Source of the DNA: Laetmonice hystrix
Lineage: Eukaryota
Direction of reading: 5' to 3'
Assembly: GCA_965235115.1 (NCBI GenBank)
Contig: OZ249436.1
Coordinates: 1,428,001-1,492,000, forward strand
Length of the DNA stretch: 64,000 nucleotides
Below, piece after piece: positions 12,276 through 25,699 of this stretch. Each line of letters starts with the position of its first letter. The first letter of the stretch is position 1. A model generated the notes under the pieces. The model made no database searches. It saw only the letters and a list, made by a program, of their open reading frames with translations, and was not told where the DNA came from. The translations under genes and the position numbers were made by a program.

Positions 12276-15200
12276 TCAGGACCTATATTCATTGTTCAAA
12301 CTGCGCCCAATGAGCCAGCGTCGAATCTCACTAGTTCCGGCACCAATCTCGTAGAGTTTGGCGTCTCGTAGCAGACGACCCGTCGGGTAATCATTGATGT
12401 AGCCATTACCACCTGAATCATAGCGAGAAAATAGGGTTAAAATAAACGTCATTAAGACTTTATGTTGCTTTTGACGTTAGAATTTTATCCCACTTTGGTG
12501 GGGGATGGGGAGGGTGTACACCTGCCCTCTGACAGGAAGGCAAGACTTGCGCACCGAACTATTATTATCCAGCTGTTTAATAATAGTTTGCGGGTCGGCA
12601 AGTGTTGCCTGTGCTTTGTGTCCGCACGCGATAGGTGTACATGTATATCGATTCCAAACTTGGTTCATGACTACGCCACCAGGTGGCAGCAGCAGCAACA
12701 TGCCACTCACCCAGAATCTGAATGGCATCCAGTGCCATCTTTGTAGCAGCCTCGGCACTCATCAGGATAGCGCCAGCACAATCCTGCTCCAACATCAAAT
12801 TAGATCATCAGCGTTATACGGTTCACTTTAGGTTCAGTTTAGTTTTCATGGGGTTGCCTGAATTATAGCGAGAAAATATGGTTAAAATAACTAAATTAAT
12901 ACTACCAAATACAGAGTACTTTCAAGATATACACAGGCAGTATAATACAGATATCTTTTCTAAATATGAACTTACCGCTATCCCTGTGCATCACTATGAG
13001 CACTTATCTTTAGACTTTGCTTCGGGTTATTTTTTTTTTTCTTTTCAATTATCTGTTGTAATCACAAGCGACTTCCGTCCTTTAATACGGGCTGTAATAA
13101 TGATTCCGCCCGCCAGATGGCAGCACTGACCTTGGAAACAATGAGCCCTCTGTCGAGAGACCGTGCTACATTGTACACGTACGAACGGCTGTAGGACAGG
13201 GTGGTGTACATGTCGGCCATTTTACCTTGTAACAGCTGGGAGCAAAGAAACAAGGTCATAAACTTACTGTACGGCATTCATCATGGTATCAACAACATTG
13301 AATCATCACAGAGTGGTAATATCTAAAAATGAACAGGTAGCAAATAAAACGATTTGCAATGGAATTTTTGGAAGACTTTAGACATATTAGGGGAAGCCAT
13401 ATGGTGCACATAAATATGAGGAGTGTACGAAACAAGTACGACCAAATGCGTGCAGAATTTATTGACAAAAACATAGATGTTATAACAATGTCTGAAACTT
13501 GGCTTGACAACAGAGATCAGAACGATAGTTTTTCTCTGCCAGGTTATCACTTGATAAGACATGATAGAAGGTGGGGGTTTTCTAAAAATGGTGTTCCCAA
13601 AAAAGGAGGAGGACTTGGCGTATATATTCGAAATCATATACCTTTTTCGACAGAAAATTTTGAACACTTGAACCTTTCTATGGAAGACATCGAGCTTCAA
13701 TGTATAGTTTTAATGCCTCCGAAAAACAAAAAAGTTGTAATTTTAAATATGTATAGACCGCCGTCGGGCAACGTCGCAAGTTTCTGCGAAAAACTATACA
13801 ATACCTTAGATGCTATTGAAAATAAACATAAGTTGGAAATATTCTTATTCGGAGATATGAATATAAATATATTGAATAAAGATGGTGAGAGTACTAAGAA
13901 GCTGTTTGAAGTCACAGGGGAATATGGTCTAAAGGCATGGATAGACTTACCAACAAGATATAGCAATAATAACGCATGTTTAGACCTGAGTTTTAGTAAC
14001 GCAAATGATATTGACAAAGCAGGAGTATTAACGTTGAACATCAGTGATCATGAAATGGTATACATTACGAGACGCAAGTCTAATGGGAAAGGTAAAAAGG
14101 TTGTTTTTCATGGTAGAACATATAGGAACTATGATCAGGATAGGCTAACATCTGAACTTTTGGAACATGATTGGAACAATTATTATAATTGCTCAGACCC
14201 CGAAATGTTATGGGACGAGGTAGAAAATGCAATTTTATCTATACTAGATAAAATGTGTCCTATTAAGGAGTACAAAGTTAAGGAGATTAAAGAACCATGG
14301 ATATCAAATGAAATATTAGAAATTATTAAGGATAAAGATCATCTCTTATTAAAAGCAAAAAGAACTGAGAAAAATGAAGACATTTCTGTAGCCAGAAGAG
14401 CAAGGAACGAAACTACTAAATTGCTTAGAAAGGCCAGGCAGGAATATATTATGGAGTTGATCGATCATAATAGGACCAAAAGAAATTCTGGAACGAGGTA
14501 AACAAAATTATGCCTGGAAAAATGAAAAGCAAAACGGATATCACATTAATTGATCAAGAATCAGGTATCCAGATTAGATCTAGTGAGATATCGAATTATG
14601 TGAACCATTATTTTGCTGGTATTGGTCCGAAACTGGCACAAAAAATGAATAAGGAGTGGAAATTTGATGGTAAAATTTGCAGTGATAAGGTGCTTAATCT
14701 TTAAACAAACAAAGATGAAATAATGAAATTGTGCAATGAAATTAACTTAACTAAATCATCAGCTATAGATAATATATCAACTAGGATGTTAAAGGATTCT
14801 TTTCTCGTGATATCCGAACAGGTGGCTCACTTATTTAACAAGTCGATAGACACAGGAGTCGTTCCAAGCAAATGGAAGTTAGGCACTGTGGTGCCCATCC
14901 CGAAAGGTGGCGATAAACATAATGTTGCGAATTTAAGGCCAGTATCTCTGTTGCCTTTACCGGGAAAGCTCTTAGAGAGAGTTGTATATAATAAAATTTA
15001 TGAACATTTAGAGACTAATCAGATATTAAGTACTTTACAAGGCGGTTATAGGAAGGGTCATTCAACAATACAAACGATAGCAGATTTTACTGATGATATG
15101 TTAAGGGAAAGAAATGTTGGGAAATTCACTGCAGCTATTTTTATCGACCTAAAAAAAGCGTTTGATACCGTAGATCACATCATCTTATTGCATAAATTAG

Positions 15201-16228
15201 AAAAATATGGTATATGTGGAAAAATATTAAGTTGGGTCAAAAACTATCTAAGTGGGAGACAGCAAAGAACACTGGCAAATGAAATAATGTCAACAGTAAG
15301 TGATGTAACGTGCGGGGTTCCACAAGGTTCTATTTTGGGACCTTTGTTGTTTTTGATCTATTTTAATGATGTAGAAAGTGTCTGTTCAAATTCCAAAATT
15401 AGATTATATGCAGATGACACAGTGTTGTATAGCTCTGGTACTAGCATTGAAGTTGTGGAGGAAAACGTACAGAAGGATTTAGATAAATTTTCTGAATGGT
15501 GCCTGAGAAATAAGCTAACCGTTAATATTGCAAAAACCAAGTATATGCTATTCAGCCCACAAAAGAAAAGAATGAGCGATACGACACTGATGTTACAGGG
15601 TGAGAGGTTACATAGAGTCCATAGTTATAAGTATCTAGGTGTTACGCTTGACCCACTGGTTAATTTTGAACTATTTGTAAAGAATCAGTTACAAACCATT
15701 TCATTTAGAACGTATCAGTTAAACAAGTTAGCATGTTATATGCCAGTAGATGCATTGGTGAAACTGTATAAGTCTTATATTTTACCCATTATAGACTATG
15801 GTGACGTGTTGTATGCTAATGTCAGCGTGGCACTACTTAACAAACTTCAAAGGTGTCAAAATCGGTGTTTAAAAATATGCTTAAAGGTAAATAATCGCAC
15901 CTCAACAGACTACATACATGCAGTAACGAAAACTCCTTTTTTAAGTCAACGTAGACTAATGCACCAGAAAGTATTCACTTATAAGAGATCACGGATAGAC
16001 GGATACATAGACTCGCAGCATAATAGGACAAGAAATCGTAACGGGCCAATCCTTAAGGTTTTCATGGCTAACACAACTTCCTATCAAAATAGTGTCGAGT
16101 ATTCAGTTGGAATATTATGGAACAATTTGTCGTCAGAAGTAAGACTTGTGCCTTCCCTAGACAATTTTAAGAAAACAATGAAGAATGAACTTTTTGACAC
16201 TATACCATTACTGTGAAACGATTGAAAC

Positions 16229-16261
<33 letters not shown>

Positions 16262-19200
16262 CTTCTTTGGTAAGTTTATTGTTTAGTTTGTTAGTCAGGA
16301 AAAAAAGCGGGTAGTTAATATGAAATAACTTTGTGTGTGATGGTTGCTGCCGAAAACCAGCGATGAGCTGAAAAGCGACCATTTATTACGGCAAGAATAT
16401 ACGTTTGAATCATGTATTAAATTATTATATAATGTTGTAAGTGCTGTAACCATGCTGTAATAAAGAAATCTGGACTAAAAAAAAAAAAAACTCGCATTGT
16501 TTGGCTGCAGGTACATTGATTCACCACAAAACTCGCATTGTTTGGCTGCAGGTACATTGATTCACCACAAAACTCGCATTGTTTGGCTGCAGGTACATTG
16601 ATTCACCACAAAACTCGCATTGTTTGGCTGCAGGTACATTGATTCACCACAAAACTCGCATTGTTTGGCTGCAGGTACATTGATTCTCGGAGTAAACACT
16701 TCAGATTAAAGTCATTTACATTCACACGTATTTGTACTGACATTTCACTGACAATGTTTTATATTCCAAGCTATTCCTCCACAAATTTATATGTTGTTAC
16801 CTGGACACTAAATACTGCATAATGCACTACACGGAATATCTTACCTGAAATTCTCCTATGTGCTGTCCAAAGGCTTTCCTAGTGTGAGCATATTCAAAGG
16901 CCACATCACATGCTGCCTGCATCAGCCTACAAGGCGTTTATATGGGACAAAAAATACCACAGAAAATAACTATATTGTAATTTTTAAATTCTCAAAAACA
17001 TCTATGTCAATCTTATTTAGTCCAAATTTACTGGACTGAATTATCGGCATTATAGGAAATGTTAAAATCTGCTGAAACGTAACCAGACAAACTGAAACAT
17101 TGATGCTCATCTTGTACTCTGCACATCAAATGAATATCTTTCTGCAAATATCTAACGTTAGTGTTATTTCCTTATCCTTAAACACTGACTTTAAAATCTC
17201 TTCACTAAATAATAGTAGGACAGTAAGATGGAAGTCATCCCTTCTCTATGTCACCCACCACACACGAGTGTTCAAGCCATGAAACATGCACTGTAATTGC
17301 ATCATTTAATATTCTGGACTAAATCATGCTGACAAATTTTCAAATGGGCAATGCCTTTGGCATTCTTACCCCAGAGGGCCTCCCGAGAGAACAAGGCGTT
17401 CTATATCTAAACCACTGAACAGTACGTAGATACCGCTGTTTACTTGTCCCATCACCTGGTCCCCTGAAACAGACCCAAACACTGCGGTCAATGTCCTCAA
17501 ACAACTAAACCACTGAACAGTACGTAGATACCGCTGTTTACTTGTCCCATCACCTGGTCCCCTGAAACAGACCCAAACACTGCGGTCAATGTCCTCAAAC
17601 AACTAAACCACTGAACAGTACGTAGATACCGCTGTTTACTTGTCCCATCACCTGGTCCCCTGAAACAGACCCAAACACTGCAGTCAATGTCCTGAAACAA
17701 CTAAACCACTGAACAGTACGTAGATACCGCTGTTTACTTGTCCCATCACCTGGTCCCCTGAAACAGACCCAAACACTGCGGTCAATGTCCTCAAACAACT
17801 AAACCACAGTACGTAGATACCGCTGTTTACTTGTCCCATCACCTGGTCCCCTGAAACAGACCCAAACACTCTGGTCAATGTCCTCAAACAACTAAACCAC
17901 TGAACAGTACGTAGATACCGCTGTTTACTTGTCCCATCACCTGGTCCCCTGAAACAGACCCAAACACTGCGGTCAATGTCCTCAAACAACTAAACCACTG
18001 AACAGTACGTAGATACCGCTGTTTACTTGTCCCATCACCTGGTCCCCTGAAACAAACCCAAACACTCTGGTCAATGTCCTCAAACAACTAAACCACTGAA
18101 CAGTACGTAGATACCGCTGTTTACTTGTCCCATCACCTGGTCCCCTGAAACAGACCCAAACACTGCGGTTAATGTCCTCAAACAACTAAACCACTGAACA
18201 GTACGTAGATACCGCTGTTTACTTGTCCCATCACCTGGTCCCCTGAAACAAACCCAAACACTCTGGTCAATGTCCTCAAACAACTAAACCACTGAACAGT
18301 ACGTAGATACCGCTGTTTACTTGTCCCATCACCTGGTCCCCTAAAACAGACCCAAACACTCTGGTCAATGTCCTCAAACAACTAAACCACAGTACGTAGA
18401 TACCGCTGTTTACTTGTCCCATCACCTGGTCCCCTGAAACAGACCCAAACACTGCAGTCAATGTCCTCAAACAACTAAACCACTGAACAGTACGTAGATA
18501 CCGCTGTTTACTTGTCCCATCACCTGGTCCCCTGAAACAGACCCAAACACTGCGGTCAATGTCCTCAAACAACTAAACCACTGAACAGTACGTAGATACC
18601 GCTGTTTACTTGTCCCATCACCTGGTCCCCTGAAACAGACCCAAACACTCCAGTCAATGTCCTCAAACAACTAAACCACTGAACAGTACGTAGATACCGC
18701 TGTTTACTTGTCCCATCACCTGGTCCCCTGAAACAGACCCAAACACTGCGGTCAATGTCCTCAAACAACTAAACCACTGAACAGTACGTAGATACCGCTG
18801 TTTACTTGTCCCATCACCTGGTCCCCTGAAACAGACCCAAACACTGCGGTCAATGTCCTCAAACAACTAAACCACTGAACAGTACGTAGATACCGCTGTT
18901 TACTTGTCCCATCACCTGGTCCCCTGAAACAGACCCAAACACTCTGGTCAATGTCCTCAAACAACTAAACCACTGAACAGTACGTAGATACCGCTGTTTA
19001 CTTGTCCCATCACCTGGTCCCCTGAAACAGACCCAAACACTGCGGTCAATGTCCTGAAACAACTAAACCACTGAACAGTACGTAGATACCACTGTTTACT
19101 TGTCCCATCACCTGGTCCCCTGAAACAGACCCAAACACTGCAGTCAATGTCCTCAAACAACTAAACCACTGAACAGTACGTAGATACCGCTGTTTACTTG

Positions 19201-22200
19201 TCCCATCACCTGGTCCCCTGAAACAGACCCAAACACTGCGGTCAATGTCCTCAAACAACTAAACCACTGAACAGTATGTAGATACCGCTGTTTACTTGTC
19301 CCATCACCTGGTCCCCTGAAACAGACCCAAACACTCCAGTCAATGTCCTCAAACAACTAAACCACTGAACAGTACGTAGATACCGCTGTTTACTTGTCCC
19401 ATCACCTGGTCCCCTGAAACAGACCCAAACACTGCAGTCAATGTCCTCAAACAACTACAGATCTACAATAGATACACACTTCCATTTCCAGTGCTGATTT
19501 ATGGAAAGTATCAAGGAATGAAAAACATTTGACAGGACATTAAAAAATAAAGAGGTGTTCTGTGGCGATGAACCTAATAATCTGCCCTTCCGATATGGGA
19601 ACTGTGTGTGAGTGATTCCTGAAATACTGCCAGATTACAGCTTGACTTATTTTATTTCTATTATATTTTTGTATTATTTCAGATAAGAAAGATGTGGCAT
19701 TCCAGTGTTATTAAGACGCTTGGTAGAGAAATGGGGATTAACGCCGTGAGGCTGGTATTATATAATTGGTTGTTTCTGACTTAGCAGAACTCTCTGTGAG
19801 TTGAGGTGACACAGAAATGGATATCCCGACTTTAATAAGCTCACCCTATACAGCCAGCAGACCCTAGGCCTCTTTCTATGTCTAGACCTCCAAACAGAAT
19901 ATAGATGCCCTGGTTTTGCTGACCGAGCACATTTTCCTCTGCCACCAAATAAAAACACTTTTAAAACAAGTCACCAAATGAAAACACTTTTAAAACAAGT
20001 CACCAAATGAAAACACTTTTAAAACAAGTCACCAAATCCACTGATTATAAACCTGAAAGTAGTCAGATAACAAGAGGGGTCACACTACAACTTTGGACGT
20101 CTTTGTTTACATGTGTGTCTTTACGATATTAAAGTACATGTATTAAAGTCTCTAAGGTCCAAAACATCCCGACGTTTCCTAAATCCTAGAACTTCTGAAC
20201 ACATTTATGGCCAATTTGCGGCGAAACATGACCCGAGGGCCTAGTTGTGTTTACAAACTGGTTGGACTGTCATGACCTCAAGACTGAGAATGTATATTTT
20301 CACACAGGTATTCCACTCTGATGAACTTCATGAAGACTGCCAGGGTGGTAGTAGTGACACAGAGAAAAGATTTCACTTGACCCGCTTGGACAGCCTCTGC
20401 TCACCCAATACATCCAAACGCAACCAACACTCGCTCTATGTCAAGACCACTAAACAAAACATAGATGCCCTTCTTTCTCTGACCCAGCGTATTTTCCGCT
20501 GTCACAAAATAATGGAAGTTCAAATAAAATAACGGATTGAAGAAGTATGTCTAATACCAAGGCGTACAAAAGCAGTCATATAAAAGGAATTGGAGAGCCC
20601 TAAAACCAGAGTTATGTGTGTGTGTGTGGTGGTGGTGGTGGTGGTGGTGGTGGTGGTGGTGGTGGGGGGGTGTTTAACCAGATAATATGTACTGGTACAT
20701 GTAAATATTTTGTATGCATCATGAGTGCTAAATTCCACCATTAAAACTGAGGATCTTCAAGATCTTAACATTTAATTCTAATTACTAAACTGGAAAATGT
20801 TCTAAGTCTATTCTTGGATCAAGTCATTGATCACCTTCATAAAACAACACCAACACAAAACAGATTACTGAGGTTTCTTTAAAAAAAAAATAACAATAAC
20901 TGCAAGTATACCACATTAAATAAGTTGGCTTGTTAGTCCAGATAATAAATGATATAACAATTGTAACATGCTTACCTGGTACTTTGACATTATCAAAGAC
21001 AAGTTCACAGGTGTTTGAACCTCGCATGCCAAGTTTATCAAGTTTTGGACTTGTGCTGAACCCCTCCATGCCCTGCAAATAATAACATTTACAGTACTGT
21101 GTACATGTACATGTACAATACCTTTAAATGACATTCTTCACTTAAGGTTTCCGATACATATTTAACATTGCAAATGTGGCCAGCACCACTAATCCAAAAA
21201 AAGATATGTACCTTTTCAACGAGAAAAGCTGTGACTCCATGTTGTGGTTTTTCAGGAATGTTATCCGTCTTTGCATAGACAACAAGCACATCAGCATCAG
21301 GTCCATTGGTGATCCAAAACTTTGTACCATTCAGTATATAATGGTCCCCTAAAATAGAAGATCCAAAACTTTGTACCATTCAGTATATAGTGGTCCCCTA
21401 AAATAGAAGATCCAAAACTTTGTACCATTCAGTATATAGTGGTCCCCTAAAATAGAAGATCCAAAACTTTGTACCATTCAGTATAATAGTGGTCCCCTAA
21501 AATAGATGATCCAAAACTTTGTACCATTCAGTATATATAGTGGTCCCCTAAAATAGAAGATCCAAAACTTTATACCATTCAGTATATATAGTGGTCCCCT
21601 AAAAGAGAAGATCCAAAACTTTGTACCATTCAGTATATATAGTGGTCCCCTAAAATAGAAGATCCAAAACTTTGTACCATTCAGTATATAATGGTCCCCT
21701 AAAATAGATACCATACACATCACCATTAACATACACTGACCATTCTAATACCTTATACTCACTCTCTTACTATTATAACACTTCCAGGGATAAAACCATA
21801 AATAATGTGTCGCTATCCATGTTAAAGTTACTTTTCCTTCTAGAGTTTAGCTCTCCTACCTTTATGTTGAGCTGAGCATTTCATGGAGACGACATCAGAT
21901 CCAGCATTGGCTTCACTCATGGCCAACGCCCCCATGTATTCACCACTGATGAGCTAAATACACCACGGATAAACATTGTCATAACATTGTTTCTTTATCC
22001 ACATTACCAGCTCCTAAAAACCTACCATTGCCATGAAGGGATTCTTTTTGTTAATAATTTCTATTAATATTCCAGATAAACTCCTAAACCAATAAAGGAA
22101 GTGCAACTCTTATTGAGAATAAAAAAAACAGGATAGTAACCTTGGGAAGGTACTTGTCTTTTTGTTGCTGCGTTCCATTGCGAACAATTTGATTGATACA

Positions 22201-25200
22201 TAAGTTAGAGTGTGCGCCGTAACTGAGAGCTATCCCTCCTGCTGCCCGTGACATCTCTTCCATGACGATCAAATGGTCCATGTAGGAGCCTGCTACACCT
22301 CCATACTCCTCTACAAACACAAACATACTTGCACAACATTTTGATTGCCTTTCTTCATTTACAAGGCACAAAATAATCCAGAAATATCGTCTATACATAC
22401 CTGGTGCCATAACAATATCGTCTATACATACCTGGTGCCGTAATCCCATGTAAACCAAGCTCACCACATTTCTTCCAAAAGTCCTGTACGGAAATGAAGT
22501 GGTTCAACATAATAAACCTAATTTACACCAACTATTCAAGATTAGGATGCCAGACCCTCCGAATGACTGGCTCATGTATAATGTAGATCTATGAGTTGAA
22601 TTTCATTCCTAAAAGGAAAAGTTACGGTACTTAGTTAGTGCCATATGGTGAGATAGGGTAGAGGCTTACTGGTACATGTATATATAAAAACTAAAATAAA
22701 TTATACTGCAATGCGGGTGTGTTACATATTACAGAATTATATTCACCCTTAGACCATGAAAAGTGTTTTCCTTGTCAATTTCAGCTGCATGTGGTGCCAA
22801 TTCCTTCTGAGTGAACTGGAAAACTGTCTGTCGCAACTAAAAGGACAATTCAGAGTATTGATAAATATAACATAGGATAGGTCATAGGGGTGCACAGGAC
22901 TATAAAGTTATGTTGCCAACGATACAACTAGATTACATACAATAGGTATAACATAGCCTAGTCATAGGATAGGGGTGGGACTATAAAGTTATGTTGCCAA
23001 CGATACAACTAGATTACATACAATAGGTATAACATAGCCTAGTCATAGCTAGGGATGGGACTATAAAGTTATGTTGCCAACGATACAACTAGATTACATA
23101 CAATAGGTATAACATAGCCTAGTCATAGCTAGGGATGGGACTATAAAGTCATGTTGCCAACGATACAACTAGATTACATACAATAGGTATAACATAGCCT
23201 AGTCATAGCTAGGGATGGGACTATAAAGTTATGTTGCCAACGATACAACTAGATTACATACAATAGGTATAACATAGCCTAGTCATAGCTAGGGATGGGA
23301 CTATAAAGTCATGTTGCCAACGATACAACTAGATTACATACAATAGGTATAACATAGCCTAGTCATAGCTAGGGATGGGACTATAAAGTCATGTTGCCAA
23401 CGATACAACTAGATTACATACAATAGGTATAACATAGCCTAGTCATAGGATAGGGATGGGACTATAAAGTCATGTTGCCAACGATACAACTAGATTACAT
23501 ACAATAGGTATAACATAGCCTAGTCATAGGATAGGGATGGGACTATAAAGTTATGTTGCCAACGATACAACTAGATTACATACAATAGGTATAACATAGC
23601 CTAGTCATAGATAGGGATGGGACTATAAAGTTATGTTGCCAACGATACAACTAGATTACATACAATAGGTATAACATAGCCTAGTCATAGCTAGGGATGG
23701 GACTATAAAGTTATGTTGCCAACAATACAACTAGATTACATACAATAGGTATAACATAGCCTAGTCATAGCTAGGGATGGGACTATAAAGTTATGTTGCC
23801 AACGATACAACTAGATTACATACAATAGGTATAACATAGCCTAGTCATAGCTAGGGATGGGACTATAAAGTTATGTTGCCAACGATACAACTAGATTACA
23901 TACAATAGGTATAACATAGCCTAGTCATAGCTAGGGATGGGACTATAAAGTTATGTTGCCGATACAACTAGATTACATACAATAGGTATAACATAGCCTA
24001 GTCATAGCATAGGGATGGGACTATAAAGTTATGTTGCCAACGATACAACTAGATTACATACAATAGGTATAACATAGCCTAGTCATAGCTAGGGATGGGA
24101 CTATAAAGTTATGTTGCCAACGATACAACTAGATTACATACAATAGGTATAACATAGCCTAGTCATAGCTAGGGATGGGACTATAAAGTTATGTTGCCAA
24201 CGATACAACTAGATTACATACAATAGGTATAACATAGCCTAGTCATAGGATAGGGATGGGACTATAAAGTTATGTTGCCAACGATACAACTAGATTACAT
24301 ACAATAGGTATAACATAGCCTAGTCATAGGATAGGGATGGGACTATAAAGTTATGTTGCCAACGATACAACTAGATTACATACAATAGGTATAACATAGC
24401 CTAGTCATAGGATAGGGATGGGACTATAAAGTTATGTTGCCAACGATACAACTAGATTACATACAATAGGTATAACATAGCCTAGTCATAGGATAGGGAT
24501 GGGACTATAAAGTTATGTTGCCAACGATACAACTAGATTACATACAATAGGTATAACATAGCCTAGTCATAGGATAGGGATGGGACTATAAAGTTATGTT
24601 GCCAACGATACAACTAGATTACATACAATAGGTATAACATAGCCTAGTCATAGCTAGGGATGGGACTATAAAGTTATGTTGCCAACAATACAACTAGATT
24701 ACATACAATAGGTATAACATAGCCTAGTCATAGCTAGGGATGGGACTATAAAGTTATGTTGCCAACGATACAACTAGATTACATACAATAGGTATAACAT
24801 AGCCTAGTCATAGCTAGGAATGGGACTATAAAGTTATGTTGCCAACGATACAACTAGATTACATACAATAGGTATAACATAGCCCAGTCATAGGATAGGG
24901 AGGGGACTATAAAGTTATGTTGCCAACGATACAACTAGATTACATACAATAGGTATTTAACATAGCCTAGTCATAGCTAGGGATGGGACTATAAAGTTAT
25001 GTTGCCAACGATACAACTAGATTACATACAATAAGTATAGGGCCTATAACAAATTAACAGTTATAGTTATAGGGGTGCGACTTAACGATACAACTATATA
25101 GATTACCCCAGTTACATACAATAAGCACATGCCTCCCCCCTTTAGCTCCCCTAATTAGATCTAGGCCTATATGCTCATAATTTTTAAATAATGTTGTCAT

Positions 25201-25699
25201 GTTTACAACACTGGTGCATCTTAGGACATATATCATGGACATGGGTGTGGATAATGATGAAGCAAAATGGTTGTAACTTATTATGACACTTTAGTTATGC
25301 AAACAATCATGAATTATTTTCCTTTAGTGAAATCCTGGCTTCCCCAGTGTAGGCTGTAGGCCTATCTATCAATCTGATACACATGATGATGTGCCTGTAG
25401 CCTGTAGGCCTACACTGCCTACATCTGTACACTCAGAATCCACTACCCCGAGTCTGTCATTCTCAAGACTCAACATCATTCATGAGCATGCTCATAATTC
25501 CTCAACTAAATATATTGATTTTATAGCAGGGTAACCACGTTACCTGTTTCTGATCGTCTGTGAGGCCAAAAAAGTCATCGTTGATTGGGTAGTAGCTACT
25601 GTGTCTGACAGATGTCTTGAGTTTGTGGCCAGTTCGAAGCTGAGCGGCCGAAGAGAAGATTTTCCGAGATACAGACCTCAACATCGTCGTCGCTGACAT
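12276..25699 (-). CDS. IVD: Isovaleryl-CoA dehydrogenase, mitochondrial; 12 coding exons, exon 8 present in three alternative copies
   Basis: Exons (minus strand, all GT-AG): e1 25544-25699, e2 22747-22836, e3 22432-22483, e4 22141-22310, e5 21860-21953, e6 21212-21348, e7 20976-21072, e8 (20405-20498, 19845-19938 or 17370-17463), e9 16845-16926, e10 13131-13235, e11 12711-12783, e12 12276-12412. Motifs: [105 protein letters not shown]. Phases join into one open frame, and the N-terminus is a basic presequence-like segment. Confidence 0.97.
13311..16490 (+). mobile_element. 5'-truncated CR1/L2-group LINE in IVD intron 9 (antisense to IVD), ORF2 frameshifted
   Basis: APE motifs (HINMRS, SETW, GDMN, SDH) in 13359-14501 and RT motifs (RPVSLL, DLKKAFD, GVPQG, YADD) in 14723-16216; frame breaks near 14490 and 14704; aataaa and A-tail at 16477-16490; 5' boundary approximate. 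Confidence 0.92.
16487..16686. repeat. 40-bp tandem repeat (5 units)
   Basis: Unit aaaactcgcattgtttggctgcaggtacattgattcaccac, directly after the LINE A-tail. Confidence 0.9.
17237..17255 (-). promoter_or_regulatory. Putative docker element for IVD exon-8 choice (intron between 8c and exon 9)
   Basis: Transcript sequence GGUGACAUAGAGAAGGGAU is complementary to elements just downstream of both exon 8a and exon 8b. Confidence 0.65.
17370..17463 (-). CDS. IVD: IVD alternative exon 8c (closest to canonical IVD)
   Basis: tttcag|GG...CTG GG|gtaag, 94 nt, encodes (G)[30 protein letters not shown](G). Confidence 0.93.
17408..19457. repeat. 98-bp minisatellite (about 21 units) built from the exon 8c acceptor region
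   Basis: Each unit is intron tail plus tttcag acceptor plus the first ~55 nt of exon 8c; two units have a 3-bp deletion. Confidence 0.96.
19805..19817 (-). promoter_or_regulatory. Putative selector element downstream of exon 8b
   Basis: Transcript UUUCUGUGUCACC forms 13 contiguous pairs (2 G-U) with docker 17243-17255. Confidence 0.55.
19845..19938 (-). CDS. IVD: IVD alternative exon 8b
   Basis: ggcag|AG...ATA GG|gtgag, 94 nt, open, encodes (E)[30 protein letters not shown](G). Confidence 0.85.
20354..20371 (-). promoter_or_regulatory. Putative selector element downstream of exon 8a
   Basis: Transcript AUCUUUUCUCUGUGUCAC forms 18 contiguous pairs (3 G-U) with docker 17237-17254. Confidence 0.65.
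20405..20498 (-). CDS. IVD: IVD alternative exon 8a
   Basis: gacag|CG...ATT GG|gtgag, 94 nt, open, encodes (A)[30 protein letters not shown](G). Confidence 0.85.
21310..21708. repeat. About 49-51-bp tandem repeat (8 units) spanning the IVD exon 6 acceptor
   Basis: Unit gatccaaaactttgtaccattcagtatata(a/g)tggtcccctaaaatagaa is the reverse complement of the acceptor plus [13 protein letters not shown]. Confidence 0.93.
22868..25035. repeat. About 80-bp minisatellite in IVD intron 1 (about 27 units)
   Basis: Unit ggactataaagttatgttgccaacgatacaactagattacatacaataggtataacatagcctagtcatagctagggatg. Confidence 0.96.

Follow-up and report, generated by a model that had tools for sequence, protein, structure and literature searches.

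A candidate RNA-pairing switch among three mutually exclusive catalytic-site exons in the isovaleryl-CoA dehydrogenase gene of Laetmonice hystrix

Can a single gene for a catabolic enzyme supply several versions of its own catalytic site, and if so, how would one version be chosen at a time? This question is raised by a stretch of 64,000 nucleotides (nt) of the Laetmonice hystrix genome (GenBank assembly GCA_965235115.1, contig OZ249436.1, positions 1,428,001 to 1,492,000 of the forward strand), referred to here as the window and numbered from its first letter. In it, the gene for isovaleryl-coenzyme A (CoA) dehydrogenase (IVD) carries three versions, 8a, 8b, and 8c, of the exon that encodes the catalytic glutamate. 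We consider it probable that these make up a three-member mutually exclusive exon cluster in a single IVD gene, that the exon to be used is chosen by competing RNA pairings, and that the acyl pockets of the resulting enzymes are graded in depth.

Three versions of one exon

The window contains a single IVD gene, which lies on the minus strand (Table 1). According to Pfam it encodes all three domains of an acyl-CoA dehydrogenase (ACAD), N-terminal helical (PF02771 in exon 4, 66.8 bits), middle beta (PF02770 in exon 6, 41.3 bits), and C-terminal helical (PF00441 in exon 12, 39.2 bits), with all scores above the curated cut-offs, and the top PDB matches of each exon tested are isovaleryl-CoA dehydrogenases. 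Among the animal IVDs compared, the 25 that score best share 65-73% identity with the protein, and in a single-gene IVD tree of 45 rows it groups with the IVD of the annelid Capitella and two unnamed transcripts with a Shimodaira-Hasegawa-like approximate likelihood ratio test (SH-aLRT) value of 98, a placement that suggests an annelid host.

The three versions of exon 8, which lie between the constitutive exons 7 and 9, are paralogous, open, flanked by AG and GT, and equal in phase, each of them beginning after one nt of a codon and ending after two. The initial annotation had described three such paralogous exons of 94 nt, running from phase 1 to phase 2, and had given a peptide for each; the coordinates and splice sites have been verified and our translations of 8a, 8b, and 8c read identically. 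The 627-Mb assembly (35 contigs) holds these three copies of exon 8 only. When 8a, 8b, or 8c is included singly, each reads through into exon 9. Skipping all of the copies leads to an immediate stop, and any two of them together lead to a stop in exon 9. It had also been stated that only one exon is usable, since any other number would shift the frame. The first part holds, given the stops that arise otherwise, but the second does not extend to the inclusion of all three, which adds 282 nt and keeps the downstream frame, the stop in this case lying inside the out-of-frame middle. Because only single inclusion leaves the frame open, 8a, 8b, and 8c constitute a mutually exclusive set, and judged as tandem paralogs of equal length with this property, the mutually exclusive exon cluster is real.

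Table 1. The IVD gene of Laetmonice hystrix, its exons around the cluster, the predicted RNA elements, and the tandem repeats next to the variable exons (positions in the window; intron letters in lower case)
Feature	Position	Strand	Length	Description
IVD gene	12279..25699	-		about 12 coding exons; outer limits approximate; located by tblastn with four RefSeq IVD proteins and splice-site context
Exon 7, constitutive	20976..21072	-	97 nt	last codon left after 1 nt
Exon 8a	20405..20498	-	94 nt	acceptor gtgacag, donor gtgagc; V256, V258, F260, C262; nearest to 8b
Exon 8b	19845..19938	-	94 nt	acceptor ggtggcag, donor gtgagc; G256, G258, C262
Exon 8c	17370..17463	-	94 nt	acceptor gtttcag, donor gtaaga; canonical version; L256, L258, P262
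Exon 9, constitutive	16845..16926	-	82 nt	first base finishes the Gly264 codon
Candidate docking site	17232..17277	-	46 nt	in the 8c-exon 9 intron, from 92 nt past the 8c donor to 305 nt short of the exon 9 acceptor
Candidate 8a selector	20338..20372	-		starts 32 nt downstream of the 8a donor; predicted 30 bp with the docking site, -38.5 kcal/mol
Candidate 8b selector	19795..19832	-		starts 12 nt downstream of the 8b donor; predicted 28 bp with the docking site, -33.8 kcal/mol
98-bp tandem array	17407..19457	-	21 units	each unit joins 42 intronic nt, acceptor included, to nt 1-56 of exon 8c
29-bp tandem repeat	19943..20037	-	3.3 units	ends 3 nt before the 8b acceptor AG

The floor of the acyl pocket

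What would the choice of exon change in the enzyme? The peptides of 8a, 8b, and 8c align without gaps to residues 233/235-264 of human IVD (1IVH), whose mature numbering is used here unless the precursor is named. In a cryo-electron microscopy (cryo-EM) study of human IVD, the catalytic base is E286 of the precursor (mature E254), the adenine is contacted by D284 together with M280, R287 rivets CoA, and L127 and L290 (precursor numbering) constitute a barrier at the pocket's bottom that excludes chains longer than about C6 (PMC12369846). Precursor L290 is mature L258 in the alignment to 1IVH, so that the pocket-lining role which the initial annotation had tentatively assigned to L258 is confirmed by that alignment together with the reported L290 barrier. 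D252, the catalytic E254 at the beginning of helix G, and R255 are retained in 8a, 8b, and 8c, as had been claimed for the glutamate. At position 258, 8c has L, 8a has V, and 8b has G, also as first read, and the same three residues occur in the same order at position 256.

Two further elements of the pocket are encoded elsewhere in the gene. L127 of the precursor (mature L95) is retained in the constitutive exon 4, hence it is leucine in all isoforms. The G406/A407 pair (precursor), which in human IVD makes room for the acyl branch and where MCAD has Tyr-Glu (PMC12369846), is also retained, as exon 12 aligns to residues 383-425 of 8SGR and reads ...YEIGAGTSE... at this point. The pocket-bottom pair of L95 and L258 is present in the 8c isoform, which shares this floor with human IVD (1IVH, 8SGR), and the 8a and 8b isoforms depart from it at residue 258. 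MCAD has T121 and V284 at the positions of IVD L127 and L290 (PMC12369846), so that 8a shares with it the valine at 258 (V284 in precursor numbering); the two differ at the L95 position, which is threonine in MCAD and leucine in all isoforms here.

We propose that the three proteins would share the catalytic glutamate, the CoA contacts (D252 and R255), L95, and the Gly-Ala pair, and would differ in the pocket floor, with the depth of the pocket graded as residue 258 goes from L to V to G. Specifically, the 8c enzyme would be an ordinary isovaleryl-CoA dehydrogenase, and the 8b form, and to a lesser extent the 8a form, would accept acyl-CoAs that are longer or bulkier than isovaleryl-CoA, the room for the branch being kept. 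On the reading of the pocket given in one structural paper, the isoforms may therefore differ in substrate range. An AlphaFold2 model of the Pecten X2 isoform (see below), computed from a 17-sequence alignment, had a mean predicted local distance difference test score (pLDDT) of 59.8, with values below 40 in the part encoded by exon 8 and in most of the C-terminal domain, and is too poor for a conclusion; a paper on the structure of SCAD (PMC13027082) has nothing on the pocket floor of IVD.

The residues found in other animals bear on this proposal. They were counted over 16 exons of the alternative and 24 of the canonical type, taken from other animals as rows hand-picked from matches. Residue 258 is G in 14 of the 16 alternative exons and A in the other two, and it is L in all 24 canonical ones. 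Residue 256 is G, A, T, or C in alternative exons versus L or C in canonical exons, and residue 262 is C in seven, P in eight, and T in one of the alternative exons and P in all of the canonical ones (24/24). The resulting patterns are ER[LC]xL..GP.G for the canonical and ER[GAT]L[GA]..G[CP].G for the alternative exon. Within the Laetmonice cluster, 8a and 8b are identical at 53 of the first 68 nt (through Glu-Arg) versus 14 of the last 26 nt, which encode residues 256-264 (Fisher P = 0.04), and by this count the two exons are most diverged where the pocket helix begins.

The alternative that survives these observations best, although we think it unlikely, is that the isoforms are equal in chain-length range and that the exon instead tunes stability, the interaction with flavin adenine dinucleotide (FAD) or electron transfer flavoprotein (ETF), regulation at Cys262, or the rate on one and the same substrate. 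Cysteine does take the place of the canonical Pro262 in 8a and 8b, as it does in the seven alternative exons counted above, and residue 256 changes together with 258, with no pocket-lining role for 256 stated in the accessible part of the cryo-EM study (PMC12369846). However, the only change common to all of the alternative exons is the loss of the L258 side chain (16/16), and it is L258 that is named as the barrier to chain length (PMC12369846). We retain the graded pocket floor as our preferred account of what the exon choice would do.

A predicted docking site and two selectors

How would the three exons be kept apart at the level of the pre-mRNA? RNA pairings of introns were examined in Laetmonice IVD alone. 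Among 32,021 pairs of pre-mRNA segments, in a scan that kept only the last unit of the 98-bp tandem array, the strongest are those in which one site in the 8c-exon 9 intron pairs with sites just downstream of the 8a and 8b donors. We refer to the former as the candidate docking site and to the latter as the 8a and 8b selectors (Table 1). The duplex of the 8a selector has 12 GC, 12 AU, and 6 GU pairs and is matched by none of 1000 shuffles, and that of the 8b selector is matched by one of 1000. Both predicted duplexes occupy docking bases 17266-17236, and because they use the same bases, the 8a and 8b pairings exclude each other.

The specificity of these pairings is apparent from either side. 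When the docking core is scored against the minus strand of the whole window, the two selector sites rank 1 and 2 of 12,792 windows, with energies of -40.4 and -40.2 compared with a mean of -16.9 (standard deviation 4.9), and the next matches lie in unrelated parts of the window. When the gene is tiled in 1,181 windows and each is paired jointly with the two 100-nt stretches that follow 8a and 8b, the top places go to the three windows overlapping the docking site, with a joint value of -39.2 at the docking site, -27.3 for the next unrelated window, and a mean of -15.1 (standard deviation 4.1). The docking stretch is unique in the genome, and the 13-nt selector core, which has 39 genome matches versus 19 for a reversed control, is not a repeat family. 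In a three-way alignment, the docking site, when reverse-complemented, has T.TCT.TGTCAC in common with both selectors. Around this core the introns that follow 8a and 8b no longer align, and the selector core is among the few islands that are still alignable. Neither the docking site nor either selector has an unusually stable local fold (z -0.2 to 0.5). No selector was found for 8c, which fits 8c as the default exon.

Three other pairings were considered and set aside as lying within background, for which shuffled sets reached -20.5 to -28.5. They are a 17-nt stretch of 82% complementarity between intron 7 (20792-20808) and the start of 8b (19921-19937), the first 7 bases of the latter being common to 8a and not 8c; a pairing of about -24 kcal/mol, within the shuffled range, between a (CCA)13(CA)n microsatellite in intron 7 (20626-20665) and the GU-rich 5' half of the docking region (17277-17255); and a pairing of -25 kcal/mol between 8b and a unit of the 98-bp array.

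We infer from strong in-silico evidence that the exon is chosen by competing RNA pairings, and we now put forward a hypothetical mechanism for the switch. As long as the docking site stays unpaired, splicing would use 8c, the proximal exon, as the default. Pairing of the docking site with the 8a or the 8b selector would loop out the intervening exons and bring the donor of the selected exon next to exon 9. One selector at a time could pair, the docking bases being common to both, and any transcripts that contain zero, two, or three copies of the exon would carry premature stops and would be removed.

The proposed switch resembles known systems. A downstream docking-site model, according to which the exon nearest the unpaired docking site is included, has been described for exons 4 and 9 of Dscam and for 14-3-3xi (PMC4691838). 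The candidate switch in Laetmonice would share with Drosophila Dscam1 exons 4/9 and 14-3-3xi a single docking site after the last variable exon, mutually exclusive selector pairings, selectors that stand beside the upstream variable exons, and a default exon that is the one nearest the unpaired docking site (PMC4691838; PMC6071210). Those systems differ from that of Laetmonice IVD in gene and phylum, and here there are two selectors only, both of them downstream of their variable exons and within 12-66 nt of the donors, with the pairing predicted from sequence. It has further been proposed that competing selectors arise when an exon is duplicated along with one arm of a stem, and the layout in Laetmonice would fit that proposal (PMC6071210).

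A different explanation, which we regard as improbable, is that exclusivity results from the reading frame, nonsense-mediated decay, and protein factors only, and that the complementarity between docking site and selectors is a leftover of duplication that has no role. It has in its favor that the selectors are paralogous, so that the signal is partly inherited, and that the premature stops in transcripts with zero, two, or three copies could alone enforce exclusivity at the mRNA level. However, a direct duplication has no way of making its copies complementary, in the opposite sense, to a third site. Moreover, of the 1,181 gene-wide windows only the docking site is an extreme outlier, the selectors take the top two places among the 12,792, and the introns have otherwise diverged past alignment while the selector core is kept. 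A choice of exon by competing pairings, as set out above, remains the account that we favor.

Age, spread, and surroundings of the exon cluster

Is the cluster peculiar to Laetmonice? Sets for comparison were obtained by an exon 6 search, by a profile search with segments of the alternative exon, and by cluster look-ups. Twelve species have RefSeq isoforms of equal length that differ only within at most 31 residues matching exon 8, namely Dreissena polymorpha, Ruditapes philippinarum, Mya arenaria, Pecten maximus, Crassostrea virginica, Magallana gigas, Ostrea edulis, Haliotis rufescens, and Haliotis asinina among molluscs, together with the nemertean Tubulanus polymorphus and the amphioxus Branchiostoma floridae and Branchiostoma lanceolatum. 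Ostrea edulis has three forms (X1, X2, and X3), and only the alternative form was found in Mizuhopecten, three Mytilus species, Crassostrea angulata, and the bryozoan Watersipora. Both exons stand in a row, with the alternative one first (upstream), in the gene models Plakobranchus P0007 and B. lanceolatum P0148. In the Logan contig P0255 (1084 nt, 259 aa), sequence of exons 7 and 9 adjoins the oyster alternative exon, and the contig must therefore be a spliced transcript. The RefSeq isoforms X1/X2(X3) of molluscs, Tubulanus, Watersipora, and Branchiostoma thus concern the same gene, the same exon, and the same length as in Laetmonice, with the alternative exon upstream of the canonical one where both are held. 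They differ in being automatic gene models and in that our third copy, 8a, with its V256, V258, F260, and C262, is closest to the alternative exon.

Residues G243, Y245, G250, L251, D252, E254, R255, G261, and G264 are invariant in the 40 exon-8 sequences from other animals, and all are kept in 8a and 8b. In a tree of 47 exon peptides (32 columns), 17 alternative rows including 8b fall on one side of a branch with an SH-aLRT value of 76, and 25 canonical rows including 8c have a branch of their own with a value of 90; neither group takes in 8a, the X3 exon of Ostrea, or a third oyster copy, which lie between the two. By comparison with these sequences, 8c is the canonical exon that is present in all animals, 8b is an ortholog of the old alternative (X2-type) exon of molluscs, the nemertean, the bryozoan, and amphioxus, and 8a is a further copy that is closest to 8b. 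The X3 exon of Ostrea differs from the canonical exon of that species by 7 residues and from its alternative exon by 12. Since Ostrea X3 is thus nearer the canonical exon and 8a is nearer 8b, third copies probably arose separately and more than once.

Some related sequences are of interest in their own right. In the oyster-like Logan genomic open reading frames P0153, P0171, and P0180, a third exon-8 copy follows the alternative exon after approximately 18 codons of intron. P0182 (a JGI transcript, 337 aa, from a 1535-nt contig), which groups with amphioxus IVD, has a mixed exon 8 with L256 and G258 (ERLLGSAGPLG). P0002 of the firefly Lamprigera yunnana (941 aa) is a model that fuses two complete tandem IVD copies, both of which have an exon 8 of the canonical type, and this is a duplication of the whole gene, not of the exon.

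The divergence among the Laetmonice copies points to considerable age. Nucleotide identity is 67/94 for 8a and 8b and 55/94 for both 8a-8c and 8b-8c, and the likeness of 8a and 8b reaches 14 nt into the upstream intron. Synonymous divergence (dS) is 1.3-3.1 for the three pairs, and the ratio of nonsynonymous to synonymous divergence (dN/dS) is 0.14-0.18 (0.17 at a dS of 1.26 for 8a versus 8b). Synonymous differences exceed the neutral expectation in each of the pairs (binomial P = 0.003, 0.009, and 0.013). These values bear out the earlier description of old, selected exons, and by them the exon 8 copies are old and under purifying selection.

Several observations count against our proposal and should be weighed together. 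The argument on substrate range leans on one paper's view of the pocket (PMC12369846), and a pair of glycines where helix G begins could act instead on stability or on where the catalytic base sits. The selectors are paralogs, so that their shared complementarity amounts to one origin with retention, not to two independent events. Between 8b and 8c, the 98-bp array presents 20 decoy acceptors that are identical to the real 8c acceptor. The exon tree is weakly supported (32 columns; SH-aLRT 76 and 90), and the label "alternative" partly follows the same residues that drive this tree. In one variant of the oyster-like third copy, the catalytic glutamate is replaced by glutamine (E254Q) and G238 by aspartate (G238D), which suggests that extra copies of exon 8 are born and decay. 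As for 8a, it has no scoring counterpart in a collection of 5.8 billion proteins, in a weak search (a 49-aa frame and 19 word-sharing candidates, among longer proteins), its F260 is absent from the other exons compared, and it could be a lineage-specific, little-used copy.

The points that concern 8a and the degenerate oyster variant are those that favor the weakest alternative, namely that only 8c is used and that one or both of the other copies are relic duplicates, pseudo-exons either ignored by the spliceosome or feeding only into nonsense-mediated decay; we judge this to be more improbable still, as 8a and 8b are open, with AG/GT sites and all of the invariant residues, their dN/dS is low at the given dS, 8b matches an exon that is modelled as a spliced isoform in many species in RefSeq and is present in the spliced oyster contig, and both 8a and 8b retain an intronic selector complementary to the one docking site.

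How much of this was known? Tandem mutually exclusive clusters with competing RNA pairings are known already, and the exon pair is visible in RefSeq. This instance, its age, the residue that it targets, and the predicted RNA switch appear undescribed. The initial annotation knew of no such cassette for IVD, and full-text literature searches, with most subscription journals outside their coverage, found no paper that describes one, but the statement has to be qualified in that the exon pair has already been modelled as the RefSeq isoforms X1/X2(X3).

A broader hypothesis, which we offer only tentatively, is that the IVD of the bilaterian ancestor was a two-enzyme gene. In this case, the old exon pair, which spiralians and amphioxus still have, would have switched L258 to Gly or Ala, giving a second acyl-CoA dehydrogenase activity with a deeper pocket for longer or bulkier branched acyl-CoAs, the alternative exon would have been lost in vertebrates and insects, and the lineage of Laetmonice would have come to possess three graded pockets (L, V, and G) under a docking-site/selector switch. 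The alternative exon is old and widespread, which could mean that many marine invertebrates have an unrecognized enzyme activity in their branched-chain or fatty-acid catabolism. If the proposal is true, this would be the first docking-site/selector switch proposed for a catabolic enzyme outside arthropods. The predicted switch takes up little room, the docking site and both selectors lying within 3.2 kb, and would extend the mechanism to a spiralian metabolic gene.

The specificity of acyl-CoA dehydrogenases is a textbook case of gene duplication followed by remodelling of the pocket. In Laetmonice the same outcome was seemingly reached via exon duplication and regulated splicing, at a chain-length gate that has been named from structure. 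Vertebrates obtain differing pocket depths from separate ACAD genes, in contrast to the proposed exon choice in one gene. The 2-methylbutyryl-CoA dehydrogenase of potato is reportedly derived from IVD and is said to have gained a new substrate range via pocket substitutions after gene duplication, as opposed to exon duplication with alternative splicing here. A further parallel is the pyruvate kinase gene PKM, a metabolic enzyme gene in which two mutually exclusive exons of the same length, exons 9 and 10, re-model a ligand pocket. PKM differs in that the pocket is an allosteric site and the exons are two, compared with a catalytic-site helix and three exons in IVD.

Finally, it should be noted that tandem repeats surround the variable exons (Table 1). 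The units of the 98-bp array are 96% alike, two of them have a 5-nt deletion, and the last unit runs into the real exon 8c. Similar arrays are present elsewhere in the IVD gene, where they often overlap splice sites. An array of eight 51-bp units (21311-21708, minus strand) copies the exon 6 acceptor and the first approximately 40 nt of exon 6, the peptide being repeated in the tblastn results, and a repeat of two 31-bp units (22383-22443) copies the end of exon 3 with its donor. Two others are intronic, one of 26.7 units of 80 bp in intron 1 (22897-25039) and one of 4.9 units of 41 bp, at 100% identity, in intron 9 (16487-16686).

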